A stretch of 32,000 nt of DNA, from contig CP075337.1 in NCBI GenBank assembly GCA_025349965.1, forward strand, positions 420,001-452,000. The letters run 5' to 3'. The DNA comes from Candidatus Saccharimonadota bacterium (GTDB lineage: Bacteria > Patescibacteriota > Saccharimonadia > Saccharimonadales > Saccharimonadaceae). The notes beneath the pieces are model-generated. The model saw only the letters and a program-made list of their open reading frames with translations. It was not told where the DNA came from and made no database searches. Positions 1,800-21,667 of the stretch are shown piece after piece. How positions within the stretch are numbered: the first letter of the stretch is position 1; each line of letters starts with the position of its first letter. The position numbers and the translations under genes were made by a program.

Positions 1800-2741
1800 A
1801 TGTCAGAAAACACAGGGGCGACGGACGAGATTCCGACGCCGTACGAGGATCTTCTTGTGGAGATCATGGACACGGGAAATGAGCGTGGTGACCGAACCGG
1901 CACGGGCACGAAGAGCTTGTTTGGCAAGCAGGTTCGTTATGACCTGTCCGAGGGGTATCCACTCCTCACGACCAAGAAGGTCTACTTCAAGAAGATGGCA
2001 ACAGAGCTGGTGTGGTTCCTTCGGGGCGACACCAACATTCGTTACCTTCTGGAGCGTGATGTTCACTTCTGGAGTGAGTGGGCCTACAAGGAATACCTGC
2101 TGTCAACAGATCAGGCAGTTCCTGAGTCCAGCTCGGATGAGTGGAAGCAGGGGATGCGTGAGTTCGAGCAGCGTATCGTGGCGGATGGTGAGTTCGCTGC
2201 CACGTACGGCAACCTCGGCCAGGTCTACGGTGCGCAGTGGCGCAAGTGGCAGACGACGACGGGTGAGACGATTGATCAGATTGAAGATGTTATCAACGAG
2301 ATCAAGACAAGTCCGGAGTCTCGTCGCCTCGTGGTGACGGCATGGAACCCGGAGTTCGTTCCGACGAGCGCCCTTCCGCCCTGCCACGTGCTGTTCCAGT
2401 TCTACGTAGCGAATGGGCGGCTTTCCTGCCACCTGTACCAGCGCAGTGCGGACATGTTCCTGGGCGTGCCGTTCAACATCGCCAGCTACGCGCTGTTGAC
2501 GATGATGATCGCTCAGCAGACAGACTTGGAGCCGGGAGAGCTGGTGATGACGTTCGGCGACGGACACATCTACAGCAACCACTTCGACCAGGTGCGTCAG
2601 CAGCTCGGTAATGAGCCCCGTCCATACCCGACGCTGCGGTTCGCGCGTAAGCCCGAGAGCATCTCTGACTACGACGTTTCCGACTTTATCGTCGAGAACT
2701 ACGAGAGTCACGAGCACATCTCGGCGCCGATCGCCGTCTAA
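1800..2741 (+). CDS. thyA: Thymidylate synthase ThyA, long form (313 aa)
   Basis: Motifs RTGTGT, LPPCH, [21 protein letters not shown] and DxHIY. The ATG at 1800 follows GGAGAG at 1792-1797. The listed ORF start at 1731 is an unsupported N-terminal extension. Sampled lines are about 63-65% GC. Confidence 0.95.
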
Positions 2742-2756
2742 GGTGAACACCTACCG

Positions 2757-2838
2757 TGTGGCTGGCTTCTTTTTGGGTAAAACCGAAGAAGCCAGCCACA
2801 CCACTCAATCTTTATCACCCCGAGAGGGTGTTTTTTAT
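2757..2838 (+). terminator. Two hairpins downstream of thyA
   Basis: A 15-bp stem TGTGGCTGGCTTCTT / AAGAAGCCAGCCACA spans 2757-2800 and has no U tract. It is followed by CACCC-cgaga-GGGTG plus T6 at 2816-2836, which overlaps the folA stop codon. Confidence 0.55.
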
Positions 2839-3335
2839 TTTGTACCCCTCCGTAGGTAGGTGGTGAACGCGTAATTAAACTTATTACGTGCGTCTGCGGA
2901 ATGCGCCTCGCGCTGTACTATTTCCCACTCATCTAAATTGATCATTGGAAAATAGGTGTCAGCATCGTTAATCGTCGTGTCTATCTCTGTTGCATCAATT
3001 CTGTCTACATAGGGAAGCGCCTCTTTGTAAAGTTGCCCACCGCCAATAATAAACGGTTCGTATTGTGCTTGTTCAAGCGCTTCTTCCAAGCTATGCGCCA
3101 CCAGAGCCCCTTCGATAGCTTTCTGCGACAATGACACGACGATATTCTCTCTATCCCGAAGTGGTCTAGAGGCTTCTGGCAGAGACTCGAAGGTTTTTCG
3201 CCCCATAATTACCGATTCGCCCCACGTAAGTTCTCTGAAATGTTGCATATCAGCCGGCAAAGCGCCCATCCAAGGGATATCGCCGTTTCTTCCGACGGCG
3301 CGATTTCTATCATAAGCAACAACAAGCCGATTCAT
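2835..3335 (-). CDS. folA: Dihydrofolate reductase (166 aa)
   Basis: The N-terminus AYDRNRAVGRNGDIPW and the motifs VIMGRKTFESLP and IIGGGQLY are typical of DHFR. It is convergent with thyA. Confidence 0.9.
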   Translation of the reverse strand: MNRLVVAYDRNRAVGRNGDIPWMGALPADMQHFRELTWGESVIMGRKTFESLPEASRPLRDRENIVVSLSQKAIEGALVAHSLEEALEQAQYEPFIIGGGQLYKEALPYVDRIDATEIDTTINDADTYFPMINLDEWEIVQREAHSADARNKFNYAFTTYLRRGTK

Positions 3336-3368
3336 ATCTTAAGCTTACCATCCTTTCGCTCCACCGTA

Positions 3369-3377
3369 TGCTACAAT
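3369..3377 (+). promoter_or_regulatory. Extended -10 promoter TGCTACAAT for the dcd-like gene
   Basis: TGnTACAAT lies 47 nt upstream of the ATG at 3424, whose SD is AGGGGAG. No good -35 is present. Confidence 0.4.
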
Positions 3378-3423
3378 AGAGAAAATATGAACTGCTGGGT
3401 GGGCAGTAAACAGGGGAGTATCT

Positions 3424-4146
3424 ATGCAGACTGGGGTGTATAGCAACACGCAAATCAAAGAGGCTATTGAGGCTGGTCAGATTGTTTTTCATCCATATCA
3501 GCCAGAGCACATCAACGGTAGTAGTGTTGATGTTACGCTTGGCCAGTGGTTCTTCCGAACCGATCGCAAGAGCCCTGTTAGTGTCTATAACCCCTTTGAT
3601 AAAGACGAGGTAGATCACTACTTCGGTGAGCCGCAAAAAGCTATTTCCCACAAAGAATGGTGCAAGCAGACCGGCAACGAACCGCTTGCAAATATTCCCG
3701 AAGACCACCCCGTTATTGTTCTAGAACCAGGCGAGCGCATTCTTGCACACACGCAAGAGTTTATCGGCATCCTTCCTCCAGGTACGACAAGCATGCAATC
3801 TCGGAGTACATGGGGACGTAATGGCGTTGCCGTCTGTTTTGACGCTGGCTGGGGTGATCCTGGCTACATTAACCGTTGGACAATGGAAATCTATAATCTT
3901 AATCAGCGGCACAGTGTTGTGCTGCCGGTAGGAGAACGCATCGCGCAAATCGTCTTTATGCATACCGGGGAGGTTGAGGGAAGCTACGATAATCTCAGCG
4001 GAAAATACGCTTCAGGGACCAACCTAGAGAACCTGATTGCTTCATGGGAACCACAACAAATGCTTCCACGAGCTTGGAAGGACCAGCGTAGTACGCCCCT
4101 TATTGTGACGAAGTGGGAAGATGACCCCCGCATTGAGCGCGCATAG
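3424..4146 (+). CDS. dcd: dCTP deaminase / dUTPase-superfamily protein (240 aa)
   Basis: The N-terminus (IKEAIEAGQI..., NGSSVDVTLG) and the core (RSTWGRNGV, GWGDPGY, ERIAQIVF) match the Dcd/dUTPase fold. It is longer than a typical Dcd of about 190 aa. Confidence 0.75.
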   Translation: MQTGVYSNTQIKEAIEAGQIVFHPYQPEHINGSSVDVTLGQWFFRTDRKSPVSVYNPFDKDEVDHYFGEPQKAISHKEWCKQTGNEPLANIPEDHPVIVLEPGERILAHTQEFIGILPPGTTSMQSRSTWGRNGVAVCFDAGWGDPGYINRWTMEIYNLNQRHSVVLPVGERIAQIVFMHTGEVEGSYDNLSGKYASGTNLENLIASWEPQQMLPRAWKDQRSTPLIVTKWEDDPRIERA

Positions 4147-5187
4147 CTAATTATTGTTTGAGTTGAAAAAGGCAATGCCGTCATCGGTATCAGGTGTACG
4201 GAAGGCAACGCTCGCAAGCCGCCTTGCAGCTAGTGAAGGCATGTTAAGGGGTGTTTTTTCTGTGTAGCAGAATAAGGTGGTGGATTCCGGCACAACAAAT
4301 GGCTCGGTCGCGTCAGTCTGTACGGTACGTTCAATAAACCCACGGCATCGCGTGTCAGAAATAAGTTCTTCAAACCGCTCATCACTTGTATTATCCCAAT
4401 AAAACGGCTTTTTTGGATTAGCTTTTGTTGCTTCGGCTGCCGCAACTTGCATTGCTTCGAGAATATCACGCGGGAATCCCGATGCTTCGTCCACGCGATA
4501 AGCGGCAACCTGTCGTTCAACAACACGAATAGTTTCCCCTTCGGCTTTTGGAATAAAGCCAAAGTCGTGCTTATAACGAACGATAAATCCGGTAATCCGC
4601 TGCTCGCCACCCTCTAATCTCTCGACATGAGGTGAGATTTTAACGCGACGATAGGCATTCTCGATGGGCTCAATCACTCCGCCGCGCTTAACGATTTCTG
4701 CGGCTGCATCAAGTCGCATTTTTGAAACATGCTCAATACGTTGCCAGTAGGGGTGCGTGACACGGCCAACTTCAAGCCCGCCATCAAGGTCAGTGAAAAG
4801 GGCTACGTCAAACACATCACCGGTTTCACCAAAGCCCGCCTCAACAAGCTGCACAATAGGCTCAAGAGATTCATCAAGACAAGGGTGAGACTGCCGCCAT
4901 TTCGCAAAGTTCTCATAATTAATCATACGACGACGCTCAACGTTAATGTAGTAATCATCAACTAAGAGTTGCTGGAATTCATGAGGTACATTAAGATCCT
5001 CTGGTGGGTGCTCGAATAACTTCGCAAATTCATCCTTAATAAGGGCCTGTCGATCTTTGATCTGCTCGTTAACATACGGATTCGCGGGCATTGCGCTATA
5101 GTGGCGGTCGTGAAGGGCGCCGCTAAAGGGCTCTGAAAACTCAGAAGGACACTCTTGACGGAGTGATAATTGTTCGGCCTCTGTCAT
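4147..5187 (-). CDS. Hypothetical protein (346 aa from the ATG at 5187)
   Basis: Long ORF of backbone GC content with no recognisable motif. The ATG at 5187 lies 10 nt downstream of TGATATAAT. The GTG at 5232 would sit inside the upstream gene's terminator hairpin. Its stop codon directly abuts the dcd stop codon. Confidence 0.6.
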   Translation of the reverse strand: MTEAEQLSLRQECPSEFSEPFSGALHDRHYSAMPANPYVNEQIKDRQALIKDEFAKLFEHPPEDLNVPHEFQQLLVDDYYINVERRRMINYENFAKWRQSHPCLDESLEPIVQLVEAGFGETGDVFDVALFTDLDGGLEVGRVTHPYWQRIEHVSKMRLDAAAEIVKRGGVIEPIENAYRRVKISPHVERLEGGEQRITGFIVRYKHDFGFIPKAEGETIRVVERQVAAYRVDEASGFPRDILEAMQVAAAEATKANPKKPFYWDNTSDERFEELISDTRCRGFIERTVQTDATEPFVVPESTTLFCYTEKTPLNMPSLAARRLASVAFRTPDTDDGIAFFNSNNN

Positions 5188-5197
5188 ACTTTTAATA

Positions 5198-5206
5198 ATT
5201 ATATCA
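5198..5206 (-). promoter_or_regulatory. Extended -10 promoter TGATATAAT
   Basis: On the minus strand the sequence reads TGATATAAT-tattaaaagt-ATG. Confidence 0.4.
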
Positions 5207-5228
5207 GATTTTTGTAAAAAAGTAAATG

Positions 5229-5288
5229 CCACCCCCTCGAGGGTGGCTGGGGGTGGCCTGGAGCAATTAAGCTCTGACAGGCCACCCC
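5229..5288 (-). terminator. Tandem hairpin terminator for the 5295..5642 gene
   Basis: An 11-bp stem GGGGTGGCCTG / CAGGCCACCCC spans 5250-5288. A second hairpin CCACCC / GGGTGG spans 5229-5246. On the minus strand a U-rich run (CATTTACTTTTTT) follows. Confidence 0.55.
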
Positions 5289-5294
5289 ATGACG

Positions 5295-5642
5295 TCAGGG
5301 AAGGCGAATACCAAGGACGTGCAGATTTCTTCGTATAGAGTTCGCAGTCGGAGGGAGCGCAGCCAAGATATCCGCGTATGCTCCGCCCATGTGGCGCGCC
5401 CCGACGATGTCACGCACCTTATTCAGCACCTCGACCACCGTCGAGCCCATGCGTCCACCATGAAGATCATTCATAGTGTTATAGATATCCATCTTGAGAC
5501 GAGCCATCTCATCTGGATTCATCGGACTCGCCGCCACGATACGAACGAAGTGGTCGATACTCCCGATAGCCGCTTCTCCGTAGCGGGCGATGTAGACATC
5601 TACATCCCCTGCGACGTTCGCACTTTTAACTTTTAGAACCAT
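5295..5642 (-). CDS. Hypothetical protein, high-GC orphan (115 aa)
   Basis: The ATG at 5642 is preceded by AAAAGGAGAACCC and terminator hairpins lie downstream. A sampled line is about 65% GC. The antisense ORF 5289..5636 looks like a high-GC artefact. Confidence 0.55.
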   Translation of the reverse strand: MVLKVKSANVAGDVDVYIARYGEAAIGSIDHFVRIVAASPMNPDEMARLKMDIYNTMNDLHGGRMGSTVVEVLNKVRDIVGARHMGGAYADILAALPPTANSIRRNLHVLGIRLP

Positions 5643-5746
5643 GGGTTCTCCTTTTCTCGAAATGTACAACTTATCTCTAAGTACTTGCTATAGTACAGCA
5701 TCTTATTATTTTTTGTCCATCAGGAGGTGCGTGTCGTGGTGAAGCC

Positions 5747-5775
5747 TTGACTTTTTCACAACGTTTCAGTATACT
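5747..5775 (+). promoter_or_regulatory. Sigma-70-type promoter of the rplJL operon
   Basis: TTGACT (5747-5752), 17-nt spacer, TATACT (5770-5775). Confidence 0.65.
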
Positions 5776-5781
5776 CTTTGA

Positions 5782-5987
5782 TAGACATACCAAAGACAGT
5801 AGCTGTGATGTACATCACTTAATCCGCTACCGAGGAACATGTGAGACAAACACACATTTCTACGTCTTTGGCAGTGCGAGAACCAAAGACGTTTTTTAAT
5901 TCTTAAAAAAACACTGCGGGTACTGCCATGTGTCGAACATTAACAGTTTGGTCAAATAGAGAACTAACAGAAACCAAGGAGATTTTT
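5782..5987 (+). promoter_or_regulatory. L10 (rplJ) leader with terminator/antiterminator
   Basis: About 205-nt leader between the promoter and rplJ. ACCAAAGAC occurs twice, at 5789-5797 and 5882-5890. Both copies are complementary to GTCTTTGG at 5864-5871, which gives mutually exclusive pairings. Confidence 0.6.
5862..5897 (+). terminator. Attenuator terminator inside the L10 leader
   Basis: 10-bp stem ACGTCTTTGG / CCAAAGACGT with an 11-nt loop, followed by T6. Confidence 0.7.
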
Positions 5988-7067: not shown

Positions 7068-7117
7068 GGCTTAAATAGACTATTATAAATAAGATACAAC
7101 TTATGTTTGGAGGGCAC

Positions 7118-8491
7118 ATGCGTAAAACTTCACTGCAAGGATTTACCATCGTCGAGCTTTTAATTGTTATTGTTGTTATTGCAGTTCTTGCAACCATAAC
7201 AATCGTCTCCTATAACGGCATTCAAGTACAAGCACATACAAGCGCTCTTAAGAGTGATGCTCGTACAGCTATGTCCTTTATGGAAACAGACAGGGTAACA
7301 AGAGGAGCCTACACCACCGACCCAAATATGCTCAACGCCGGAAGTGGCCTACCGGTAAATTCAGATCGAAGCTTTGCCTTCTATAGCGACGGTACGGCAT
7401 ACTGTATCTCAGTACATTCAACTCGAGTCAGTACAACATTTTATGTCTCGAATGAACAACCATCTCCCAAAGAAGGCCTATGTCCTCAAGATAGTGGCGC
7501 TAGTGTAGCTTCTCTTGCAGGAAACGGTTCGCTCGGGTATGCAAACGGTAGCGGTGAAGCGGCTGTACTCGCATCCCCAGTGGCCCTTTCATCTAGCTCT
7601 GGGAACGTTCTTTATTTCACTGATTCAAGCACTTCGCGCGTGCGACAAGTCACTACGGCCGGCGTCGTGTCAACGATTGCGGGAAATGGCCCAACGGGCA
7701 CCACAGAGGGTGTCGGCAATGCGGCGCTCTTCAATTGGCCGCAGGCAGTGACTATCGGGTTTAACGGGCATCTCTACGTTGCCGATTCAAACAATCAACG
7801 CATCAGAACAGTTCCTCTTAATAACACATCAACGTCTGTTTTTGCAGGCCTCACGGGGACTTCAACAACAACTGGATTCGCAGAGGGGACTGGCACCGCG
7901 GCACGTTTCAACGTACCTCGTGGAATTGCATTTGACTCAAATAATAATCTACTCTACGTAGCTGATTCGCAAAATAACCGAGTTCGTAGAATAACCGCAG
8001 GGCAGGTTGTCGACACCCTTGCGGGGCAGTCCGGCGGAGGCTTTGTCGACAATACAACAGGTACGCTTGCACAGTTCAACTATCCACAGGGCCTTGCAGT
8101 GAGCACCAACGGCACGATTTACGTCGCGGATACGAACAATCATAGAATTCGCATGATAACACCATCTGGAAGTGTATCGACACTAGCGGGCGGACTACAG
8201 GGCAATGTAGATAATGATGGTACTGCGGCACGTTTTAACAAGCCGAGCGCCGTAGCAGTATCTGCAAACGGTACGGTATATGTAACCGACACCGACAACC
8301 ATAGTATTCGCAAAATTACACCCGCTGGAAAGGTTTCTACAATAGCAGGTAACGGTATGGCAGGATACGCTAATGGAAACGGGAGTGATGCACGCTTCAA
8401 TGCTCCACGCGGCATTGCGCTTGGAAGCGACGGGCGTTTGTATGTAGCTGATACGGGTAATCATCGTATTCGAGTCCTTACGAATCTATAA
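7118..8491 (+). CDS. Modular type IV pilin / pseudopilin with a C-terminal six-bladed NHL beta-propeller (457 aa)
   Basis: The ATG at 7118 follows GGAGGG. The prepilin signal is MRKTSLQG|FTIVELLIVIVVIAVLA, with Phe at +1 and Glu at +5. A pilin globular head follows, with a Cys pair (YCISV...GLCP), then six NHL repeats. Confidence 0.85.
   Translation: MRKTSLQGFTIVELLIVIVVIAVLATITIVSYNGIQVQAHTSALKSDARTAMSFMETDRVTRGAYTTDPNMLNAGSGLPVNSDRSFAFYSDGTAYCISVHSTRVSTTFYVSNEQPSPKEGLCPQDSGASVASLAGNGSLGYANGSGEAAVLASPVALSSSSGNVLYFTDSSTSRVRQVTTAGVVSTIAGNGPTGTTEGVGNAALFNWPQAVTIGFNGHLYVADSNNQRIRTVPLNNTSTSVFAGLTGTSTTTGFAEGTGTAARFNVPRGIAFDSNNNLLYVADSQNNRVRRITAGQVVDTLAGQSGGGFVDNTTGTLAQFNYPQGLAVSTNGTIYVADTNNHRIRMITPSGSVSTLAGGLQGNVDNDGTAARFNKPSAVAVSANGTVYVTDTDNHSIRKITPAGKVSTIAGNGMAGYANGNGSDARFNAPRGIALGSDGRLYVADTGNHRIRVLTNL
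7506..8488 (+). repeat. Six tandem NHL-type repeats of about 55 aa (about 165 bp)
   Basis: Recurrent pattern (T/S)xAG...G.A.(A/L)RFN.P.G(I/V)A....G.LYVAD..N(H/Q)RIR.(I/V)T..G.VS. Blade ends read YVADSNNQRIR, YVADSQNNRVR, YVADTNNHRIR, YVTDTDNHSIR and YVADTGNHRIR. Confidence 0.8.
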
Positions 8492-8500
8492 ATGAGAGAA

Positions 8501-8528
8501 CCCCCGCCGACACAAAGGTCAACGGGGG
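8501..8528. terminator. Weak hairpin between the convergent pilin gene and the 8561..8998 gene
   Basis: CCCCCG / CGGGGG stem with a 16-nt loop. U tracts are poor on both strands. Confidence 0.35.
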
Positions 8529-8560
8529 CAATACCTCACAACAGAAAGGGCTAGGGGCGG

Positions 8561-8998
8561 CTAGTCTTCATCCCCTTGCATCTGGCGCATGAACTCTTCA
8601 AGTGTCATAGAGCTTTCGGGCATGCCCTTGACCACGTGGACGATTGCAACGTCCGACTGGTCGATGAAAGGGTAGTCGTTGAGCATCTTACCGATGCGCT
8701 TCAACGTATGGCTGTCGTAGATATCTCGGTGGGTATGCATGATAAGCAGCCCGAACGCATCCTTGGAGGGATCGTTCCTTTTGATGGAGTCACAAAACAA
8801 CTCCATAAAGGTAACGACGTTAATCTTGTGCTCATCCTGCTTAAGCGCGCGGATGGACGGATGGTGGGGGCGGTACACAACCGCTTCCCGGCCAATCACC
8901 TGGCATCCCTCGGTCTCTACCGGATGGACTTCAAGCGAGTAGTGGTGCCACTGGCTCAGCGCCGCCGGGACGATGGAGATGTAGACGATAAGCTTCAT
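8561..8998 (-). CDS. Hypothetical protein, elevated-GC orphan (145 aa)
   Basis: The ORF has its own TGCTATAAT promoter and an acidic C-terminus. It is about 53-63% GC by line. The antisense ORF 8576..9043 was judged spurious. Confidence 0.55.
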   Translation of the reverse strand: MKLIVYISIVPAALSQWHHYSLEVHPVETEGCQVIGREAVVYRPHHPSIRALKQDEHKINVVTFMELFCDSIKRNDPSKDAFGLLIMHTHRDIYDSHTLKRIGKMLNDYPFIDQSDVAIVHVVKGMPESSMTLEEFMRQMQGDED

Positions 8999-9050
8999 TG
9001 CTCTTCTTTCTGTAGAAATGTGAGGTGCATTACCGCAAGGTAATATTTAT

Positions 9051-9946: not shown

Positions 9947-10333
9947 TTACCCGGCAATCGCCACCAGTTCAATATCAAACACGAGGTCACTATTTGGCGG
10001 AATATTAGCCGCGGCGCGGACTGACCCATAGGCCATAGTAGAAGGGATAATAAGACGGCGAATACCACCAACGCGCATGCCGGGTACTCCCTGTGTCCAG
10101 CCAGCAATCACTTGATCCAGACCAAAACTAATTGGCTCGCCGAAATCACGGCTACTCTGGAAAATGGTTCCGTCTGCACATAATGCCCCTGTGTAATGCG
10201 CGGTGATGGTAGCGCCCGGTGCCACCGCTTCACCTGTACCAACAACGGTATCAATAATCTGTAATTCTGCGACCTTATTTTTGCCGAGTGGCATAAAGTC
10301 AACAAGTTGGGTCCCCTCAAGTCTCTCATTCAT
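9947..10333 (-). CDS. FKBP-type peptidyl-prolyl cis-trans isomerase (128 aa)
   Basis: FKBP core: HYTGAL.DGT.F.SSRD.G.P.SF.L..VI.GW.QG..GM.VGG.R.L.IP...AYG. Confidence 0.9.
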   Translation of the reverse strand: MNERLEGTQLVDFMPLGKNKVAELQIIDTVVGTGEAVAPGATITAHYTGALCADGTIFQSSRDFGEPISFGLDQVIAGWTQGVPGMRVGGIRRLIIPSTMAYGSVRAAANIPPNSDLVFDIELVAIAG

Positions 10334-10363: not shown

Positions 10364-10394
10364 TTGACACCTATTTCATGCGGTAGGGTATACT
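10364..10394 (+). promoter_or_regulatory. Possible promoter TTGACA-N19-TATACT for a long leader and the 83-aa ORF
   Basis: Consensus -35 and a good -10, but the 19-nt spacer is long. Confidence 0.3.
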
Positions 10395-10873: not shown

Positions 10874-10888
10874 ATCCTCCCGACAGAG

Positions 10889-11889: not shown

Positions 11890-11891
11890 CT

Positions 11892-12031: not shown

Positions 12032-14002
12032 ATGACCAAAGAAAAACAGGGAGGTAAGCGCAAGTTTATTGCACTTGCACTCCTGAGCGCGCTCGTGACG
12101 AGCTTCTTCGTCGTGAGCGGACCGGTAAGTGGAGCTGAGGCGCACACCGGAGATATCACGGCCACGGCTGCCTGCAATGCAGGCACCGGGGAGTACGATG
12201 TCACTTACACACTGACGCTGCGCAATACGCCGCCGGGTCAGACTGCCTCAACCATGTGGCGGATCGGTAGCCAGAACTTCCAGGGGACGCCCAACAGCGC
12301 CGCCGGGATGGACAAGGGGCCGATTTCCTCCGCAGGTAACGGACAGGTGGTCCTCGGATCACATTCGTTGCCGGGTACTACCGTTGGCAATGGTCCTTGG
12401 GTCTACGCCTACACGAAGTGGAGCGGTGGCTACGGCTACGGTTCTGACACTCGCGTCGAGGGCCTCAAGGGCAACTGCAGCAAGCCCTTCGACTGGAACT
12501 GGCAGTACGCCGCACCGACGTGCGATGGACTGACGGTGACCTACCCGGCAGACCTGCCGGCGGGTCAGGCGAACGATGTCAACATCCGTGTGAAGAACAT
12601 GGAGACGGGCGAAGTTCGTACCTTCAACTTCCATAACAACACCGGCACCTGGTCGGGTACGCAGACGTTTGACGTCAAGGCGCACCCGGACTGGCCCGGA
12701 TGGAAGTACTACGAGTTCCAGTGGACTCAAGTGGCAGGTACCAACTACCACTGGCAGGGGAGTCTCATTTGCGGAACGCAGAAGCCCCCGAAGCCCGAGC
12801 CCAAGGTGGAGCGGACTCCCAAGGAGACCGTTGACTGCGCGGCGAACATCGTCAACATCGTCATCACGGTGAAGACGAGCGACCCCGTATGGAACGAGGA
12901 GCTGTACGACTGGGCCTACGGTGAGCCGGTTGTGACGACAGAGATGTCGACACGTCCACTGACCGATGCCGAACGTCTGCAGTGTGCGGGTGACAAACCC
13001 GAACCGAAGGTTGACGTGAAGACGACGGAGAAGGTTTCCTGTGAGACCGAGCTCGTCACCATCACGAAGACCACTACCACAGAAGTGTACGTCCTGGACG
13101 GCACCAAGTGGGTTCTGGGCGAGCCTGATGTGAAGGTGGAAACGAGTGATCGTCCTGCCACCATTGAGGAGCTCAACAAGGCCGAGTGCCCGCCGGGCAC
13201 CGAGCCGCCCCCGCCCGTTCATGAAGTGGATGTGAAGACGTCGCTGGACTGCACCACCGAGACGGTGACGACGACCACGACGACAACGGACATCCTGTAC
13301 GTCTGGAACACGGAGACGCGTACCTACGTCCTGGGTAAACCCGACGTGAAGGTGGAGACGAGCACTCGCCCCGCCACTATCGAGGAGCTCAACAGCGCCG
13401 AATGTGACCCGACCACTCCTCCCGAGCCAAAGGTGAAGGAGGAAGTGACTACGGTCATTGACTGCGCCACTGAGACGGCGACGGACACGAAGGTGGTTAC
13501 GACCATCGATCCGGTCTGGAACGCGGAGACGCGTACCTGGGTGGATGGCGAGCCCAAGGTCGAGTCCACCGACACAGTGCGGCCGGCAACGGTTGACGAG
13601 TTGAACGGCGCCCCGTGCGACCCGTCCACTCCGCCGCCACCGGTCGTCAATGTTACCAGCAAGGAAGTGCTTGACTGCACGACCAAGAAGGTAACAACCT
13701 CGACCGATGTCGCCGAGTCGAAGCCGACTTGGGACGTTGACACCCGCACCTGGGTGTTTGGCGACCCCGTGGTCAAGACCAGTGTCACTCAGCGTGACGC
13801 AACAGCAGCAGAGGTGAAGACCTGCCCGGCGACGCCGAGCAAGAACACTCCAGTGCCGCCCAAGACCACCAAGTCCGGCCTTGCCGTGACTGGCGGCGAA
13901 ACCATACTGCCTCTCGTAGGTGGTGCTGCCGCGCTGATTCTCCTCGGCGCAACCCTGACGATCCTCGCGGTTCGTCGCCGTCGTCAGAACGCAGACGCGT
14001 AA
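12032..14002 (+). CDS. Cell-wall-anchored surface protein with an LAxTG sorting signal and five tandem domains (656 aa)
   Basis: The ATG at 12032 follows GGGGAGA. Signal peptide MTKEKQGGKRKFIALALLSALVTSFFVVSGPVSGAEA. The C-terminus is LAVTG (13880-13894) plus a hydrophobic helix and an RRRRQ tail. About 60% GC. The ORF start at 11939 is a spurious extension. Confidence 0.85.
   Translation: MTKEKQGGKRKFIALALLSALVTSFFVVSGPVSGAEAHTGDITATAACNAGTGEYDVTYTLTLRNTPPGQTASTMWRIGSQNFQGTPNSAAGMDKGPISSAGNGQVVLGSHSLPGTTVGNGPWVYAYTKWSGGYGYGSDTRVEGLKGNCSKPFDWNWQYAAPTCDGLTVTYPADLPAGQANDVNIRVKNMETGEVRTFNFHNNTGTWSGTQTFDVKAHPDWPGWKYYEFQWTQVAGTNYHWQGSLICGTQKPPKPEPKVERTPKETVDCAANIVNIVITVKTSDPVWNEELYDWAYGEPVVTTEMSTRPLTDAERLQCAGDKPEPKVDVKTTEKVSCETELVTITKTTTTEVYVLDGTKWVLGEPDVKVETSDRPATIEELNKAECPPGTEPPPPVHEVDVKTSLDCTTETVTTTTTTTDILYVWNTETRTYVLGKPDVKVETSTRPATIEELNSAECDPTTPPEPKVKEEVTTVIDCATETATDTKVVTTIDPVWNAETRTWVDGEPKVESTDTVRPATVDELNGAPCDPSTPPPPVVNVTSKEVLDCTTKKVTTSTDVAESKPTWDVDTRTWVFGDPVVKTSVTQRDATAAEVKTCPATPSKNTPVPPKTTKSGLAVTGGETILPLVGGAAALILLGATLTILAVRRRRQNADA
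12785..13845 (+). repeat. Five tandem repeats of about 210 bp (about 70 aa) inside the surface protein
   Basis: Each unit runs from a P(E/V)PKV-type linker, through (V/L/I)(D/S)C, ...(P/Y)(V/T)WN.ETRTWV.GEP.V....RPAT..ELN.AEC. PEPKV-encoding 15-mers lie at about 12794, 12998 and 13421. Confidence 0.8.
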
Positions 14003-14761: not shown

Positions 14762-14763
14762 AT

Positions 14764-14792
14764 TTGCACTTTATAGCCTAAAGTGTTATAAT
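14764..14792 (+). promoter_or_regulatory. Promoter TTGCAC-N17-TGTTATAAT
   Basis: -35 at 14764-14769 and extended -10 at 14784-14792, immediately after the upstream stop codon. Confidence 0.55.
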
Positions 14793-14863
14793 ATAAGTAT
14801 GGTAGTAGTCGTGTGAATGCACGGCTACTATTGTATCTGTCCACTAGAGAAATGGAGTTCATC

Positions 14864-15505
14864 ATGTTGATGAAAACGACACAGCTTCAGACACTTGGCG
14901 GTGTTGATGACGGAGGAGGTCCTCTCGTCACTGCAACCCTACACAATGACGCAGAGCGTATTCCGGGGAGTACCATTCCAACCATCAAAGACGTCTTCAC
15001 GCAGCCCGGCATCATGTCCGGCCATGTAGTAAAGATTCTCAACGAGAGGTTGTGCGAGAATATAGCGCCACTTCTCCTGATGTCCGGGCCATCTATGCGC
15101 AAGCTCGACGGTATCGGGCCCGGCAGGGCGGTTTTCATCCGCGACGCTCTCACTGCCGCCCAGCTTCGGCTACGGTATGAAGAGGAGCGCGTGCACGAGC
15201 GTGCCAAGATGCTGTTCGGTAGTATCGAACAAACGCCCATCCAGGCGCTGCTGGTTACCTCCGCACTGAGCGGTGGCTACGTGGCAGATGTACACGTGCA
15301 CAGTCCGGCTGTACAGCTGATTGCTCAGCGCACCTCCATCCGCACCATCGGTGAGCTGATGGGTCATCTGGCGTCGAAGACTCAGCTCGCACGCTATTTT
15401 GACCTCTCGGGGCTCGCTATCGATGCTCGCCATGTTCGCGACACGTTCGTTGAGCTGGAAAGCCGACTGCAACCCTGGAGGCTCTCACTGAACAGCGTGT
15501 CGTAA
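14864..15505 (+). CDS. Hypothetical helix-hairpin-helix protein, high-GC (213 aa)
   Basis: The ATG at 14864 lies 6 nt after GGAG. HhH-like segments are MRKLDGIGPGRAVFIRDAL and IRTIGELMGHL. A sampled line is about 65% GC. The ORF start at 14813 is unsupported. Confidence 0.6.
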   Translation: MLMKTTQLQTLGGVDDGGGPLVTATLHNDAERIPGSTIPTIKDVFTQPGIMSGHVVKILNERLCENIAPLLLMSGPSMRKLDGIGPGRAVFIRDALTAAQLRLRYEEERVHERAKMLFGSIEQTPIQALLVTSALSGGYVADVHVHSPAVQLIAQRTSIRTIGELMGHLASKTQLARYFDLSGLAIDARHVRDTFVELESRLQPWRLSLNSVS

Positions 15506-15522
15506 GATTCACTAGTGGATAT

Positions 15523-15552
15523 GCCCCGGTTTTTCGCCGGGGCTTATTCATT
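15523..15552 (+). terminator. Intrinsic terminator
   Basis: 7-bp GC stem GCCCCGG / CCGGGGC with a 7-nt loop, then TTATTCATTT. Confidence 0.7.
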
Positions 15553-17152: not shown

Positions 17153-18511
17153 ATGGCAGGAACATCCCAACCCACCAAAGATGCCGCAGGGCGCATACCA
17201 CCACAAAACCTAGATGCTGAAATGAGCCTTCTGGGTGCTGTTCTTATTGACGAAGAAACGTTGGCGGATATTTCCGAGCATGTCACGGCAAAGGACTTCT
17301 ACGATAAGCGCCACGGCATGATCTATGGCGGCATGATTGCGCTCTACGAAAAGCACAAACCTGTCGACCTCCTTACACTTACTGATGAGCTCAAACGCAA
17401 GAAGCATCTTGATGAGATTGGCGGCTCAGCTTACCTCACCGAACTCACTAATTATGTACCGACGGCCGCGCACGCCGAAGCTTACGCAGAACTTGTTTCA
17501 CAAAAGGCCGTTCGTCGACGCCTCATTAAAGCCAGTGCTGATATCGCAGAGATGGGGTATGACGAAGAAGAGAGTACACAGCTTCTTCTTGAGCGTGCAG
17601 AAGCAGAACTTTTTGCCGTCAGCGACCAGTCTACCAAGCAGGATCTTGTCGCACTCGAAACCATCCTTACTGACAGTTTTGACCGCATGGAAGAACTTCA
17701 CCGCAACAAGGGTGCACTCCGCGGTGTTCGCACTGGGTATCGCGACCTTGATAACATGACCGCTGGCCTCCAGCGCAGTGACCTTATCATTCTGGCCGCT
17801 CGTCCTGCCATGGGTAAGACCACCCTCGTGACGAACCTTGCCTACAACGTGGCGACCATTGCCAAAGCACCGGTGCTCTTCTTCAGCCTTGAGATGAGCA
17901 AAGAGCAGCTGGTTGACCGTATGTTGGCAGACGCATCTGGTGTGGATGCCTGGAATATTCGTACAGGTAATCTTTCGGATGATGATTTCAGCAAGCTATC
18001 CGAAGCAATGGGTGAAATGGCCGAAGCGCCAATTTACATTGATGACACACCGGGCGTGAGTGTACTTGAAATGCGCACCAAGGCGCGGCGTATTGCGCAC
18101 GAGCAACCACTCGGCCTTATTATCATCGACTACTTGCAGTTGATGCAGGGGAGTGGCAAGTCTGACGGAAACCGTGTTCAGGAAGTTTCTGAAATTTCTC
18201 GTGGACTTAAGTTGATTGCCCGTGAGTTGAATGTTCCAGTGATTGCACTGAGTCAGCTGTCTCGTTCAGTCGAAAACCGTAGTCCGCAGATTCCACAGCT
18301 TGCCGACCTCCGTGAATCAGGGTCGATCGAGCAGGACGCCGACATTGTGATGTTTATCTATCGTGAAGCGTATTACAACCCAGAAACGGAGCGCGAGAAT
18401 GTGACCGACCTCATTATCGCCAAACACCGTAACGGCCCAGTGGGGACAGTTGAGCTTTACTTCCACCCAGAACGACTTCGCTTCATGTCGCTTGATCGGC
18501 GCCACGAATAG
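17153..18511 (+). CDS. dnaB: Replicative DNA helicase DnaB (452 aa)
   Basis: PPQNLDAEMSLLGAVL at the N-terminus, Walker A ARPAMGKT, IIIDYLQLM and RESGSIEQDAD. Confidence 0.97.
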   Translation: MAGTSQPTKDAAGRIPPQNLDAEMSLLGAVLIDEETLADISEHVTAKDFYDKRHGMIYGGMIALYEKHKPVDLLTLTDELKRKKHLDEIGGSAYLTELTNYVPTAAHAEAYAELVSQKAVRRRLIKASADIAEMGYDEEESTQLLLERAEAELFAVSDQSTKQDLVALETILTDSFDRMEELHRNKGALRGVRTGYRDLDNMTAGLQRSDLIILAARPAMGKTTLVTNLAYNVATIAKAPVLFFSLEMSKEQLVDRMLADASGVDAWNIRTGNLSDDDFSKLSEAMGEMAEAPIYIDDTPGVSVLEMRTKARRIAHEQPLGLIIIDYLQLMQGSGKSDGNRVQEVSEISRGLKLIARELNVPVIALSQLSRSVENRSPQIPQLADLRESGSIEQDADIVMFIYREAYYNPETERENVTDLIIAKHRNGPVGTVELYFHPERLRFMSLDRRHE

Positions 18512-18521
18512 TAAGCATAAA

Positions 18522-18530
18522 TGGTATACT
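18522..18530 (+). promoter_or_regulatory. TGGTATACT extended -10 between dnaB and the membrane-protein gene
   Basis: Lies 11 nt after the dnaB stop codon and 15 nt upstream of the ATG at 18546. Confidence 0.4.
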
Positions 18531-18545
18531 AGCAAGAGAACAATT

Positions 18546-19985
18546 ATGAAGAAACCTGAAGATTTTTCGCACTACTTCCTTTACCGCTGGCGGTATGTCA
18601 TTGGCTACAGTCTTATCGGAGTGCTTTTAATTTCGCTGCTTTTGTTTGCAGGGCTCCTTACGCCAGCCGGGCTATCAGAGGCGGAGATGAATTCAGCTGC
18701 TACCAGTGCGTCACTTTCTTTCACCAACCCCGAAACGCTCGCGGTAACAAATTTACCGTATCGTCTTTTGCAGGCGGGTGTATTTAGTGTGTTCGGTATA
18801 TCTACGTTTACTATTAAACTTCCGTCACTCATTCTCGGCCTTATCTCAGCTGCAGGATTTATCCTCCTGCTCCGACGTTGGTTTACTCTCAACGTAGCAG
18901 TTCTCGCTTCGCTGATTGCGGTGACAACTGGGCAATTCCTTTTTATCGCCCAATCGGGCACCCCGAGTATCCTCTATATTTTCTGGCCGATTATCATCCT
19001 TCTCCTTGGTACGCAAATTACGCGTGTTAAGAAGCACCGTTTCGCTATGAAGGCAGCCTTTGTCGCAGCAGTGGCACTCAGTCTCTATACGCCACTAAGC
19101 ATCTATCCGTTACTTGCTATTATTTTAACTATCTTCCTCCATCCACACCTCAGAGCCGTACTCCGAAGGTTATCAAAGAAGCGACTTGCTATTATTAGCG
19201 TGCTTGCGCTTTTTCTCGTAGCACCACTCGTGTACCTTATCGTGAAAACACCAAGCCTTGGCATTAGCCTCATTGGACTGCCGGGGACTTGGCCGCCAAA
19301 TCTACTCGAAAACGCCATTACGGTATTTAAGCAGTATTTCTTGTTCTGGGAGCCAAGCGCCACAACAGTCATGACGCCCGTGTTCGGTCTTGGGTCAATG
19401 CTTGTAATTGCTATGGGGCTCTATCGCCTTATCCGCACTCGCGAGACGACACGAAGCTACCTCGTAACACTGTGGATTCTCTGTCTTATTCCGATTCTAC
19501 TGCTAAATCCATCGTACACGAGCGTGTCATTCGTACCCTCAATGCTAATGCTCGCCGCGGGACTCACGAGCCTCATTGGCTACTGGTATAGACTCTTCCC
19601 GCGTAACCCCTATGCGCGTATCGCCGGCCTCATTCCTATCGTCATTCTTGTGGCTGTATTTATTAGCACTGGCTTAATTCGCTATGCATACGGATATCAC
19701 TACACGCCAACGGTAGCAACACTCTTCTCAAAAGACCTTACACTACTGCCAAAGGACACTAAGACACTCTATGTCTCTGAAAAAGAGAAGCCATTCTATG
19801 CAGCTGTAGCAAAATATCGTGACGAGTTGACTATTGCAGACAAGCGCCCAGAAGCATCAAGCTTCACTGCGTCAAGGGCTGCAATTACTACTCCGCCGAA
19901 GGGATACAAGATTACTAGAGTAGTCACAAACAGCGCCTCTCATGAGTCTGACCGCTTCTTTGTCTACCAAAAAAGCGAAAAATAA
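18546..19985 (+). CDS. Polytopic membrane protein, probable GT-C (ArnT/PMT-like) glycosyltransferase (479 aa)
   Basis: At least 10 hydrophobic helices. The N-terminal pattern (LPYRLLQAGVFSVFGISTFTIKLPSLILG) resembles the PMT_2/ArnT family. The ORF start at 18450 overlaps dnaB and is unsupported. Confidence 0.55.
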   Translation: MKKPEDFSHYFLYRWRYVIGYSLIGVLLISLLLFAGLLTPAGLSEAEMNSAATSASLSFTNPETLAVTNLPYRLLQAGVFSVFGISTFTIKLPSLILGLISAAGFILLLRRWFTLNVAVLASLIAVTTGQFLFIAQSGTPSILYIFWPIIILLLGTQITRVKKHRFAMKAAFVAAVALSLYTPLSIYPLLAIILTIFLHPHLRAVLRRLSKKRLAIISVLALFLVAPLVYLIVKTPSLGISLIGLPGTWPPNLLENAITVFKQYFLFWEPSATTVMTPVFGLGSMLVIAMGLYRLIRTRETTRSYLVTLWILCLIPILLLNPSYTSVSFVPSMLMLAAGLTSLIGYWYRLFPRNPYARIAGLIPIVILVAVFISTGLIRYAYGYHYTPTVATLFSKDLTLLPKDTKTLYVSEKEKPFYAAVAKYRDELTIADKRPEASSFTASRAAITTPPKGYKITRVVTNSASHESDRFFVYQKSEK

Positions 19986-20022
19986 GGTACAATTACTCTA
20001 GTAAACGACGGAGGATGTTTTA

Positions 20023-20313
20023 ATGGCGTTTGACCAAATGAAAATGCTCAACAAGCTACGTAAAGCTCAGAGCGACCTAAAAAAAGAGATTATTGAAGTT
20101 GAAGCAGGTGACGGTGCGGTTGTCGTACAGATCACTGGCGAGCTCAAGGTGAAGAAGATTTCTATCAACCCTGAATCAGTTGACCTTGACGACATCAGCG
20201 AACTTGAACACTGGATTGAAATTGCAGTCCGTGACGGCCTTGCGAAGGCGCAGGAAGTTGCCGCAGAGAAGATGAAGCCGCTCATGGGTGGTCTCGGAAA
20301 CCTCGGACTTTAA
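20023..20313 (+). CDS. ybaB: Nucleoid-associated protein YbaB/EbfC (96 aa)
   Basis: SD GGAGG. Typical size and pattern (MLNKLRKAQ..., GDGAVVVQITGELKVKKISINPE) and the conserved position upstream of recR. Confidence 0.88.
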   Translation: MAFDQMKMLNKLRKAQSDLKKEIIEVEAGDGAVVVQITGELKVKKISINPESVDLDDISELEHWIEIAVRDGLAKAQEVAAEKMKPLMGGLGNLGL

Positions 20314-20332
20314 AAGGATAGTAGGCAGGACA

Positions 20333-20354
20333 GCGGGGCAATGACCCCGCTTTT
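20333..20354 (+). terminator. Hairpin and T4 between ybaB and recR (partial terminator or attenuator)
   Basis: GCGGGG-caatga-CCCCGC-TTTT. Confidence 0.45.
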
Positions 20355-20366
20355 GCCGCACATAGC

Positions 20367-20981
20367 ATGTCACAACTATTACCACGAGCCCTTGAAAAGC
20401 TCATCGAAGAACTCGGCCGCCTTCCAGGCGTAGGCCAGCGCACCGCAGAACGCTATGCGTATTATTTGTTACGTGCCAATACTCGTATTACAGACGGACT
20501 TTCTTCTGCTATTCATGACATTCACAGCCTTGTAAAGACGTGTCCTGTGACTTTTGCGCTTATCGATGCGGAGGAGGATGTCTCACCGCTCTACACAAAC
20601 ACTGACCGTGATAAAAAACTTATTGCGGTAGTTGAAGAGCCACTTGATATTATTGCTTTGGAGCGCACGGGGCAGTTTAAAGGAACGTACCATGTGCTTG
20701 GTGGCGCAATGAGCCCTATTGATGGTATTGGCCCAGAGCAACTGCATATTCCGGAGCTTGTTGAACGCATCAAGAATGATGACGTAGAAGAAATTATCAT
20801 TGCCACAAATGCCAGCGTGGAAGGGGAGTCAACCGCACTCTTCTTGCAGAAATATATTCAGGATGCCGGCCTTGAGGTGAAAATGAGTCGCCTCGCACGG
20901 GGAATTCCGGTTGGTGTTGACCTTGAGTATGCTGACCAAATTACGCTTTCGCATGCACTTGAAGGACGAAGGATTATTTAA
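20367..20981 (+). CDS. recR: Recombination protein RecR (204 aa)
   Basis: LIEELGRLPGVGQRTAERYAYYLL (HhH) followed by a Toprim region. Confidence 0.93.
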   Translation: MSQLLPRALEKLIEELGRLPGVGQRTAERYAYYLLRANTRITDGLSSAIHDIHSLVKTCPVTFALIDAEEDVSPLYTNTDRDKKLIAVVEEPLDIIALERTGQFKGTYHVLGGAMSPIDGIGPEQLHIPELVERIKNDDVEEIIIATNASVEGESTALFLQKYIQDAGLEVKMSRLARGIPVGVDLEYADQITLSHALEGRRII

Positions 20982-21003
20982 ATACATATCTATAAAAGTG
21001 AAG

Positions 21004-21047
21004 AGGCCCCATCTCATCTACTGGAGTGTAGAGAGATGGGGCCTTTT
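21004..21047. terminator. Bidirectional terminator between recR and the convergent 21062..21667 gene
   Basis: 12-bp stem AGGCCCCATCTC / GAGATGGGGCCT followed by TTTT. Confidence 0.75.
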
Positions 21048-21061
21048 GCGCTTCACAGCCG

Positions 21062-21667
21062 TTAGCCGGCTCGGACCGTCCGAGGCTCTTCCTGGGCCAT
21101 GATGGCATCGAGCTCTTGCGGTTTCAGCCCTTCGAACTGTCGACTCAGGGATTTCTCCTGTTCGTCGATCATCGCTCGGACAGCGTACAGCGATTTACTG
21201 TAGCCGTCGATGAACTGAAGCAACTCTACTCCGAAGCTCTGGCGAATCCGAACGGATCCGAAATTCGAGAGCAACGAACGCGAAGTAAGGATCAGTCTCA
21301 GCGAACGCCCATTCGATACCACCACAACCCGGAACACATCCGAATCGCTGCTCTTTTCGAGCATGACGGTGTAATTGAACAGATCGTTCACGAGCAGCAC
21401 CTCGGTCTGCGACTCCGGCAGCAGGGACTTGGTCAGTCGATACAGCCCGCCAACCGTCTGCCGCGTCATGTGGATGCTGAGCCACCTCCAGCAGAGAAAG
21501 CCCAGCACCGCGACGTAGGCGATGCCAGCCACAGCCAGCGGAAGGAGTACGAACCTCCCCGAATCCATCAGGATGGGCACCCCGACGGAAATCATGAGGA
21601 AGGCGTTGATCAGCAGGACCACCGTAGCGATTCTGATCATCTGAAACTTGAATTCCGAAAAGCGCAT
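21062..21667 (-). CDS. Hypothetical membrane protein, high-GC (201 aa)
   Basis: The ATG at 21667 follows AAAGGAG. Two N-terminal TM helices precede a soluble domain of about 130 aa. A sampled line is about 63% GC. The ORF start at 21730 is unsupported. Confidence 0.6.
   Translation of the reverse strand: MRFSEFKFQMIRIATVVLLINAFLMISVGVPILMDSGRFVLLPLAVAGIAYVAVLGFLCWRWLSIHMTRQTVGGLYRLTKSLLPESQTEVLLVNDLFNYTVMLEKSSDSDVFRVVVVSNGRSLRLILTSRSLLSNFGSVRIRQSFGVELLQFIDGYSKSLYAVRAMIDEQEKSLSRQFEGLKPQELDAIMAQEEPRTVRAG

Follow-up and report, generated by a model that had tools for sequence, protein, structure and literature searches.

In 2017, Oliveira and colleagues reportedly described hot spots of horizontal transfer in bacterial chromosomes that are flanked by core genes. 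Non-orthologous displacement and lateral transfer of the thymidylate synthases ThyA and ThyX are said to have been documented by Myllykallio and colleagues in 2002 and by Stern and colleagues in 2010, and Medigue and colleagues reportedly recognized in 1991 a class of E. coli genes, class III, with a "horizontally transferred" codon usage. Codon-biased translation is also known from stress regulons. In Neisseria, a minimal mobile element (MME) is defined by a pair of conserved genes that enclose different whole-gene cassettes, which are exchanged by homologous recombination (PMC3082526, citing Saunders & Snyder 2002, Snyder et al. 2007), and the strain-specific accessory genes of meningococci have a low GC content (PMC3082526). 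Saccharibacteria have been shown to be naturally competent and to undergo homologous recombination (PMC10633639). Here, we analyzed a 32-kb segment of a Saccharibacteria (Saccharimonadales) chromosome, referred to in its whole length as the window, and seven genes in it, thyA among them, that are richer in GC than the surrounding genes. Our comparisons suggest that most of these seven genes are old, fast-changing residents of fixed positions and not recent imports.

The window is part of a 408-kb contig from a metagenome-assembled genome and has an overall GC content of 49.4%. It carries the housekeeping genes L1, folA, dcd, L10, L7/L12, yaaA, dnaX, dnaB, ybaB, recR, a DHH phosphoesterase gene (dhh) and cysS, whose closest relatives are found in genomes of Candidatus Saccharibacteria / Saccharimonadales. 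We compared the window with related loci fetched from genomes and metagenomes, which are designated by L-numbers (L082, L129, L162, L164 and others), and all results below concern the window and these loci. The closest relative is L082 (93% identity for DnaB, 94% for L10 and 91% for dcd), which is identical to L162 over their overlap and whose backbone aligns to the window at 65-84% nucleotide identity.

The original prediction, made from the sequence of the window, had proposed seven high-GC genes in a backbone of about 50% GC. We determined the composition of these seven open reading frames (ORFs), as delimited in that prediction, relative to 25 other genes of the window (Table 1). All seven are real outliers that exceed the highest of the 25 other genes, with z-scores of 3.4-8.1 for GC content and 2.2-6.1 for GC content at third codon positions (GC3), and two of them (10979-11851 and 5295-5642) are only mild outliers in GC3. 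The proposed GC contents of 63-65% for thyA, 5295-5642, 14864-15505 and 21062-21667 were too high by 6-11 points and match only the richest 60-nucleotide (nt) lines. Each outlier is a single gene and not part of a block, as had been proposed: the compositional steps fall at the ends of the ORFs, and folA presents a normal composition although it lies 94 nt from thyA.

The GC excess is restricted to synonymous sites and represents a distinct, GC-ending codon usage. Indeed, the first and second codon positions are native in six of the seven genes (GC1 of 0.55-0.67 and GC2 of 0.30-0.42, with a GC2 of just 0.30 in 8561-8998), and the surface protein gene at 12032-14002, whose product carries an LAVTG motif, is the sole gene of the seven with a GC2 of 0.51. 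An excess limited to third positions is a misfit with proteins that evolved in a genome of 65-70% GC, and the unraised GC1 and GC2 of six genes therefore argue against import from a high-GC donor. Codon usage in the seven genes relative to the backbone was shifted toward CTG (0.37 vs. 0.06), ATC (0.72 vs. 0.33), AAG (0.81 vs. 0.50), CCG (0.49 vs. 0.22) and TAC (0.82 vs. 0.47). Third-position A was found at 0.07-0.10 in the four strongest outliers and at up to 0.24 in 10982-11851, compared to 0.18-0.29 in the backbone. The codon families of Gly and Arg are unshifted, and CGT and GGT are still frequent in the seven genes. The lowest GC3 values were those of the ribosomal-protein genes (0.31-0.34). 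Across 15 related loci, 37 of 120 variable ORFs presented a GC3 at least 0.15 above that of their own backbone (mean of +0.23); the GC1 and GC2 of these 37 ORFs were 0.583 and 0.392, relative to 0.604 and 0.386 for the backbone. Among the three closest genomes, the GC3 of this class of genes reaches its maximum in the window, and the L162/L082 lineage has the lowest values for five of the seven genes.

Long antisense ORFs overlap several of the GC3-rich genes, at 2103-2750 (-), 8576-9043 (+), 12359-13222 (-) and 21116-21703 (+), and in L165 the gene caller annotated an ORF of 324 amino acids (aa) antisense to the entire thyA. These overlapping ORFs are probably not genes: they arise from the near absence of TTA, CTA and TCA codons, since A-ending codons are nearly absent from the GC3-rich genes.

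The outliers are located in a small number of slots, namely between L1 and folA, between a 361-aa hypothetical gene and the L10 leader, between a gene coding for pilin and NHL domains (pilin-NHL) and yaaA, between yaaA and a conserved 172-aa gene, between this gene and dnaX, and between recR and dhh. The order L1 .. L10-L7/L12 .. 172-aa gene-dnaX-dnaB-pmt-ybaB-recR-dhh-cysS is conserved across about 60 related loci from genomes and metagenomes, and the genes and elements that flank the slots (L1, folA/dcd, the L10 leader, pilin-NHL, yaaA, the 172-aa gene, dnaX, recR and dhh) keep their order in about 60 relatives. When the window was aligned to L082, five non-alignable blocks coincided with the outlier ORFs, and four of the five are nearly equal in length in the two sequences. 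L082 possesses a same-strand ORF in every block, of similar size except in the surface-protein block. Overall, same-strand counterparts were found at six of the seven positions in L082/L162 and at all five positions covered by the L164 contig; at the nucleotide identity of about 75% that separates the window from its relatives, replacement is indistinguishable from extreme divergence. Orthologous loci of relatives thus do not lack the insertions, as a set of recent arrivals would have implied: positional counterparts are present and usually of similar size.

The product of thyA matched the thymidylate synthase families over its full length (PF00303, E = 4e-112, 374 bits for a cut-off of 24.3; NF002496, 442 bits for a cut-off of 325). 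The best database matches are 80-86% identical, followed by matches at 60-74%; Firmicutes and one Brachybacterium come next at 57-59%, and Actinomycetota reach only 59%. The contigs coding for six of the best matches are all from Saccharibacteria and share the neighborhood L1-hyp(-)-thyA-(folA(-))-dcd. Orthologues in the same synteny are 82-86% identical in L162 and L164 and 61-65% identical in L165-L167, and GC3 is raised in all of them. The identity of thyA follows that of the backbone: the window, L164 and L162 are mutually 80-86% identical, L165, L166 and L167 are mutually 71-75% identical, and the identity between the two groups is 61-69%. The GC3 of thyA in seven lineages of this clade was 0.76, 0.70, 0.62, 0.82, 0.77, 0.83 and 0.55, relative to 0.28-0.54 for neighboring genes. 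At the four-fold degenerate sites of dcd, the identity between six of these lineages was 0.27-0.44, compared to 0.24-0.28 expected, which is near saturation. Because the synonymous sites of the neighbors are near saturation and the GC3 of thyA is still high, a single old transfer would have lost its signal, which indicates that the anomaly is maintained. ThyA also presents a slight rise in GC1 and fewer FYMINK residues (Phe, Tyr, Met, Ile, Asn and Lys), and a phage search with thyA returned nothing above 55% identity. On these comparisons, the thyA of the window is a resident of the whole clade and no recent replacement.

In relatives, the thymidylate-synthase slot does undergo replacement, as judged from its occupants. 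Several lineages of the sister clade have a thyA of normal GC3 (0.34-0.47), and outlier alleles were found in L092 (GC3 of 0.83) and L110 (GC3 of 0.64). A thyX gene with a GC3 of 0.67-0.82 replaces the thyA-folA pair after L1 in three loci (L094 3488-4552, L104 4244-5314 and L129 3273-4034), and the ThyX proteins of Streptomyces and Gordonia phages share 62-64% identity with that of L129. In total, at least four unrelated alleles occupy this slot across the relatives, including this actinophage-like ThyX with a GC3 of 0.82.

Whole-ORF exchange was observed between close strains. L129 and L130 are 96% identical, and the ORF upstream of L10 is swapped exactly between them (L129 5150-5484 vs. L130 591-862), such that conserved sequence begins again at the ribosome-binding site at one end of the ORF and at the terminator hairpin at the other end. 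Gene-sized indels distinguish L104 from L106 at two slots, and in the L145-L161 group (about 92% identity) three to four alternative cassettes directly follow the stop codon of the 172-aa gene. The per-gene identity is mosaic in L129/L130 (88-100%) and in L084/L087 (87-99.7%), which points to frequent homologous recombination. Between close strains, the GC3-rich ORFs are less diverged synonymously than the backbone: 24 synonymous differences over 678 codons vs. 633 over 3692 in L084/L087 (about five-fold fewer) and 4 over 398 codons vs. 272 over 2878 in L129/L130 (about nine-fold fewer). In these ORFs, synonymous changes are about as numerous as non-synonymous ones. Gene-sized insertions also occur, as observed for tdk in relatives and for the fkbp gene of the window. 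We searched for over-represented k-mers or repeats resembling a DNA uptake sequence (DUS) and found none.

The sortase-type surface protein at 12032-14002 differs from the six other genes. Its layout comprises a signal peptide, a tandem beta-sandwich N-terminal region, five T/P-rich repeats, the LAVTG motif, a transmembrane segment and an RRRRQ tail. The C-terminal sorting signal was read in the sequence (LAVTGG, 20 hydrophobic residues, RRRRQNADA); the sorting-signal model NCBIfam NF058582 scored 20.8 bits, under its cut-off of 27, and no sortase gene was found in the window. An Agromyces protein matches residues 13-248 with 60.6% identity (E = 4e-93), and the N-terminal domain shares 51-61% identity with proteins from Agromyces, Demequina and Nocardioides. 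Among the matches listed, all named homologues belong to Actinomycetota, with Isoptericola also represented. Full-length homologues with 63-70% identity and the same tail are located on contigs of 0.8-1.2 Mb; from these contig sizes and the shared tail, we infer that they are from Saccharibacteria. The same slot of L082 codes for an unrelated 796-aa LAITG protein, and nucleotide homology returns only in the last 70 nt of the gene. An AlphaFold2 model of the N-terminal 306 residues, based on an alignment of eight sequences, was all-beta (predicted local distance difference test score, pLDDT, of 77), and its fold matches were weak and Fn3/Ig/adhesin-like. A scan of viral contigs yielded no relatives of this protein and a plasmid search yielded no match. 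The similarity to actinobacterial proteins suggests that the N-terminal domain probably came from an Actinomycetota donor, and of the seven genes this one alone appears to have a supported origin in a high-GC phylum. To our knowledge, Actinomycetota is the only phylum that supplies hosts of cultivated Saccharibacteria.

We tentatively favor, without going so far as to call it probable, a scenario in which slot genes that are hypervariable and exchanged by recombination keep a GC-ending codon regime under selection. Each slot retains its own promoter, ribosome-binding site and terminator (where these can be examined), and the ORF between them evolves very fast. Among close strains, the ORF is exchanged whole, from start codon to stop codon, probably through natural transformation and subsequent homologous recombination within the conserved flanks. 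The GC-ending codons (CTG, ATC, AAG, CCG and TAC) would be held by selection on the synonymous sites of this class of genes, with codon-biased translation and mRNA stability as candidate mechanisms. The GC excess is most likely maintained by selection on synonymous sites, because the excess of thyA persists across the whole clade, and a fading trace of a donor genome is an unlikely source. Persistence, ORF-precise extent, restriction to third positions, reduced synonymous divergence and the GC3 pattern of the class over the three closest genomes all fit selection. A bolder version, which we regard as speculative and unlikely, is that this Saccharibacteria clade keeps a second, GC-ending codon regime that marks independently transcribed, strain-exchangeable genes (thymidylate synthase, surface and membrane proteins). 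Silent-site selection would then serve a codon-dependent control of translation or of how long the mRNAs last, which might work by way of a tRNA supply or a wobble modification tied to the host-attached state, and the GC anomaly would be a functional label instead of a foreign footprint.

Several points weigh against selection on synonymous sites. Ribosomal-protein genes prefer the opposite, A/T-ending codons, such that the GC-ending usage is not ordinary translational optimization. Other fast-evolving slot genes (790-1611, 4147-5232 and folA) have a normal GC3, and rapid evolution alone therefore does not produce the anomaly. The thyA of L168 has only a mildly raised GC3 of 0.55. That GC3-rich ORFs diverge little at synonymous sites between strains may equally well reflect recent gene-specific transfer, and ORF-precise replacement was seen in relatives only. 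Finally, a GC-richer sister clade has, in the same slots, cassettes that are richer in AT than its backbone, which fits exchange between lineages that differ in GC content.

This last observation fits a rival explanation without any codon selection, which we consider rather unlikely yet the most serious of those weighed here: a continuous turnover of alleles drawn from a GC-richer pool. Slots would be re-seeded by recombination in their flanks, and the incoming alleles, whose last home would have been GC-richer Saccharibacteria (55-60% GC) or other carriers, would be replaced before their composition ameliorates. Turnover accounts for the ORF-precise replacement and gene-sized indels between near-conspecific genomes, the mosaic identity among close strains, the lower synonymous divergence of the GC3-rich ORFs relative to their flanks, as recent spread predicts, and the unrelated alleles, ThyX included, of the thymidylate-synthase slot. 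The family spans 38-57% GC and the cassettes of the GC-rich clade deviate downwards; moreover, the amino-acid composition of a protein from a relative with 55-60% GC would differ little, and the GC1/GC2 argument does not exclude this explanation. Against turnover, the phylogeny of thyA tracks the backbone in its clade (clade A), and six of the seven lineages examined retain a high GC3. None of the sampled GC-richer relatives yielded a homologue of an orphan ORF, GC-rich cassettes are absent from low-GC relatives, and efficient recombination requires near-identical flanks, that is, donors with the same backbone GC content.

The original prediction had instead inferred piecemeal import from one or more high-GC donors, followed by promoter capture. 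In the form weighed here, the seven acquisitions would be separate and fairly recent, with actinobacterial hosts as possible donors, each gene would have been inserted between housekeeping genes, and the donor composition would not yet have ameliorated. The preference for CTG, CCG, AAG, ATC and TAC does resemble GC-rich genomes, cultivated Saccharibacteria live on Actinobacteria (PMC10633639), fkbp and, in relatives, tdk are gene-sized insertions, and both the N-terminal domain of the LAVTG protein, which is common to Actinomycetota, and the phage-like ThyX of L129 point to such donors. This explanation fails for most of the seven genes and, taken as a whole, we find it improbable: all seven have positional counterparts in relatives, GC1 and GC2 are native, CGT and GGT stay frequent, and the persistence of the thyA anomaly past the near-saturation of its neighbors cannot follow from one old transfer and subsequent neutral decay. 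The best hits do not fall outside of the lineage either, since thyA matches Saccharibacteria in the same synteny and the 14864 ORF matches a narrow family of the same slot, with the N-terminal domain of the LAVTG protein as the exception; for thyA and the 14864 ORF, import is largely refuted. GC-biased gene conversion, in which the slots would be recombination hot spots where biased heteroduplex repair pushes third positions toward G/C, appears less probable still. The strong signs of recombination at and around the slots, the coincidence of the anomaly with the most variable loci and the slight GC1 rise of ThyA with its fewer FYMINK residues are in its favor. Conversion does not predict steps that match the ends of ORFs or a normal folA so close to thyA, fast-evolving proteins should also gain GC at positions 1 and 2, where none was gained, and other hypervariable slot genes are not GC-rich. 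The effects of biased conversion reported for bacteria are also far smaller than the GC3 excess of 0.2-0.45 observed here. Finally, the source is a metagenome-assembled contig, into which high-GC fragments of another organism might have been stitched by assembly or binning. We reject such a chimera, whose probability is practically negligible: the same proteins are found on a second, independent contig of 780 kb, the same layout and GC3-rich counterparts are found in independently assembled relatives from other samples, and the boundaries lie at start and stop codons with native ribosome-binding sites. Selection on the synonymous sites of exchangeable slot genes thus remains the scenario that we tentatively place first.

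Table 1. Composition and coordinates of the outlier genes, their candidate signals and the associated features (positions in the window)
Feature	Coordinates	Strand	GC (%)	GC3	Details
thyA, long L. casei / E. faecalis-type thymidylate synthase	1800-2741	+	57.7	0.76	Pfam, NCBIfam and PDB matches
thyA promoter-like site	1723-1750	+			TCGAAA-16-TGnTACAAT; consensus scan, 9/12 matches; consensus match only
thyA 3' terminator-like hairpin	2816-2830	+
Small orphan ORF, 115 aa	5295-5642	-	53.7	0.58	Slot 361-aa hypothetical gene / L10 leader
5295 ORF promoter-like site	5719-5690	-
5295 ORF hairpin	5247-5228	-
Ribosomal protein L10 leader	5772-5906	+			Rfam RF00557, 63.4 bits vs. gathering score of 44
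Orphan ORF, 145 aa	8561-8998	-	53.9	0.75	GC2 0.30; slot pilin-NHL / yaaA
8561 ORF promoter-like site	9070-9042	-
8561 ORF hairpin	8529-8500	-			12 bp
Coiled-coil orphan ORF, 289 aa	10982-11851	+	54.5	0.56	Composition over 10979-11851
10982 ORF hairpin	11858-11884	+
LAVTG promoter-like site	11891-11920	+
Sortase-type surface protein (LAVTG)	12032-14002	+	61.1	0.755
Orphan ORF, 213 aa	14864-15505	+	57.5	0.65	Slot conserved 172-aa gene / dnaX; GGAG 7 nt before ATG
14864 ORF promoter-like site	14763-14792	+			TTTGCA-18-TGnTATAAT
14864 ORF hairpin	15523-15543	+
Membrane-protein ORF	21062-21667	-	56.4	0.75	Slot recR / dhh; AAAGGAG before ATG at 21667
21062 ORF promoter-like site	21768-21740	-			Perfect TTGACA-17-TGnTATAAT
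25 other genes of the window			45.6-51.9 (mean 48.4, standard deviation 1.6)	0.31-0.53
Non-alignable block	5228-5783				L082 1978-2516
Non-alignable block	8476-9047				L082 5217-5801
Non-alignable block (surface protein)	10915-13931				L082 7290-9688 (3017 vs. 2399 nt)
Non-alignable block	14842-15552				L082 10602-11268
Non-alignable block	20969-21636				L082 16670-17358

The orphan and membrane-protein ORFs present various degrees of similarity to their positional counterparts. The minus-strand assignment of the 5295 ORF is supported by identities of 30% (L082/L162) and 34% (L164) to minus-strand ORFs at the same place, and in many relatives the L10 leader, which constitutes the conserved right edge of this slot, is preceded by a minus-strand ORF of 83-107 aa with a GC3 of 0.52-0.79. 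Same-strand counterparts of the 8561 ORF were found in L082 (146 aa; called as 145 aa in L162) and in L164 (148 aa): the latter is 27% identical (E = 3e-14), and the former has position and a C-terminal motif in common with it and nothing more. The 10982 ORF corresponds to a 289-aa ORF at the same position in L164, with a C-terminal motif in common, and is absent from L082/L162. The 21062 ORF is 22% identical (E = 5e-13) to the same-strand ORF in the same slot of L082, and its promoter and first codons are kept at the nucleotide level. Among the fetched loci, positional counterparts are the only relatives of these four ORFs. The 14864 ORF has homologues in the same slot of L082 (37%), L107 (two copies), L129/L130, L085 and L088. 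Its family is narrow, with 23 representative relatives among 1.84 billion proteins, and a scan of viral contigs yielded none. PHROGs and PADLOC returned no family for any orphan ORF, and the GC-richer relatives sampled contained no homologues of the orphan ORFs of the window.

Most outliers carry their own promoter-like site, of resident style, and a 3' hairpin, as originally predicted; a consensus scan yielded no promoter-like site for 10979-11851, and no clear terminator was found for 21062-21667. The same prediction had held that neither integrase, transposase nor tRNA lies nearby and that the outliers do not form a single mobile element, and both claims stood: no integrase or transposase domain was detected in the 30 ORFs scanned up to position 27102, no tRNA was found in the window, searches of PHROGs and PADLOC gave no match, and the outliers are independent single genes without mobility genes. 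A prophage, a genomic island and an integron were rejected as candidates, given that no mobility genes were detected in the ORFs scanned up to position 27102 and that the ORFs have their own promoters. For integron gene cassettes in particular, no integrase was detected in these ORFs, and the hairpins represent ordinary terminators, which belong to the slot and do not move with the ORF.

Other variable genes were noted at or near the slots. The ORF at 790-1611 (-), between L1 and thyA, codes for 273 aa with a GC3 of 0.39 and has no detectable similarity to the ORFs that take its place in L162 (268 aa) and L164 (244 aa); this slot gene is hypervariable but lacks the GC anomaly. The recR-dhh slot of L107 holds, at 17409-20125, a two-gene cassette coding for a MoxR-like AAA ATPase and a vWA-domain protein, whose GC3 values (0.76 and 0.71) are far above that of its backbone (0.47). 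The gene of an FKBP-type peptidyl-prolyl isomerase (fkbp, 9947-10333, -) has a native composition (GC of 0.51, GC3 of 0.45). L082/L162 and L164 lack it at this position: in these relatives, yaaA and the next conserved block are only about 50 nt apart. The gene thus represents a gene-sized indel without GC-richness. The block at 10364-10914 presents 80-82% nucleotide identity in L082 and L164, above most of the coding backbone, and contains an 83-aa ORF (10622-10873) that gene calling also recovered in L162 and L164; neither the block nor the ORF matched Rfam, Pfam, PHROGs or PADLOC. The product of the pilin-NHL gene (7103-8491, +) combines an N-terminal methylation motif of the type IV pilin kind with NHL-repeat beta-propeller domains and is 70% identical in close relatives. 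L084 and L087 have three paralogues in tandem nearby, each of about 760 aa and with a pilin-like N-terminus. In L138, the dnaB match is split by about 1 kb (11185-11820 and 12853-13545), which suggests an intein or another insertion.

Atypical GC content or codon usage is routinely taken as evidence of horizontal transfer, notably in metagenome-assembled genomes of symbionts whose hosts have a very different GC content. For most of the genes analyzed here, this interpretation fails: the anomaly is limited to synonymous sites, is inherited by position and outlasts the near-saturation divergence of neighboring genes. The naturally competent Saccharibacteria possess fixed chromosomal slots in which strains swap single ORFs under resident signals, which offers a genome of very small size a simple route to diversify rapidly its surface proteins and those that interact with the host. 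The one clear actinobacterial link belongs to a cell-surface protein, which bears on the attachment of an epibiont to its host.

Compared to the Neisseria MME, as that element is outlined in PMC3082526, these slots similarly involve a conserved pair of flanking genes and alternative whole-gene cassettes among strains (seen here in relatives), without integrase, transposase or repeats, in a naturally competent type of organism and with recombination through homologous flanks (which would be the route here). Relative to the same outline, the cassettes differ in that they are mostly distant homologues of equal size and strand and not unrelated genes. Moreover, in the slot whose junctions were read, the regulatory signals (promoter, ribosome-binding site and terminator) remain in place and the ORF alone is replaced, and no DUS-like uptake sequence was seen. 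The slot cassettes are also GC-ending, in contrast to the low GC content of meningococcal accessory genes (PMC3082526). The Actinomycetota adhesins of the sortase-anchored LPXTG/LAXTG type share with the LAVTG protein the signal peptide, beta-sandwich, repeats, LAVTG motif, hydrophobic segment and basic tail, and its N-terminal domain is 60% identical to Agromyces proteins. Unlike them, the LAVTG gene resides in a Patescibacteria genome, and its tail, RRRRQxxDA, is the local Saccharibacteria type that the unrelated L082 protein of the same slot also carries.

The likeness to core-flanked hot spots lies in accessory genes found at few positions between core genes, many without mobile-element genes. 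Here, there is one ORF per slot, the slots are conserved over a family-level clade, and the deviation is upwards in GC and purely synonymous. As in the displacement of ThyA by ThyX, the same position holds either thyA-folA or thyX in relatives, and unrelated thyA alleles occur in closely related backbones; the thyA of the window, in contrast, is shared in synteny by its whole clade and shows no sign of recent replacement. Finally, as in the codon-usage classes of other bacteria, a discrete minority of genes has a coherent usage unlike that of ribosomal-protein genes and of the bulk of genes. Class III genes of E. coli are AT-rich and mobile, whereas the genes of the window are GC3-rich and positionally fixed.

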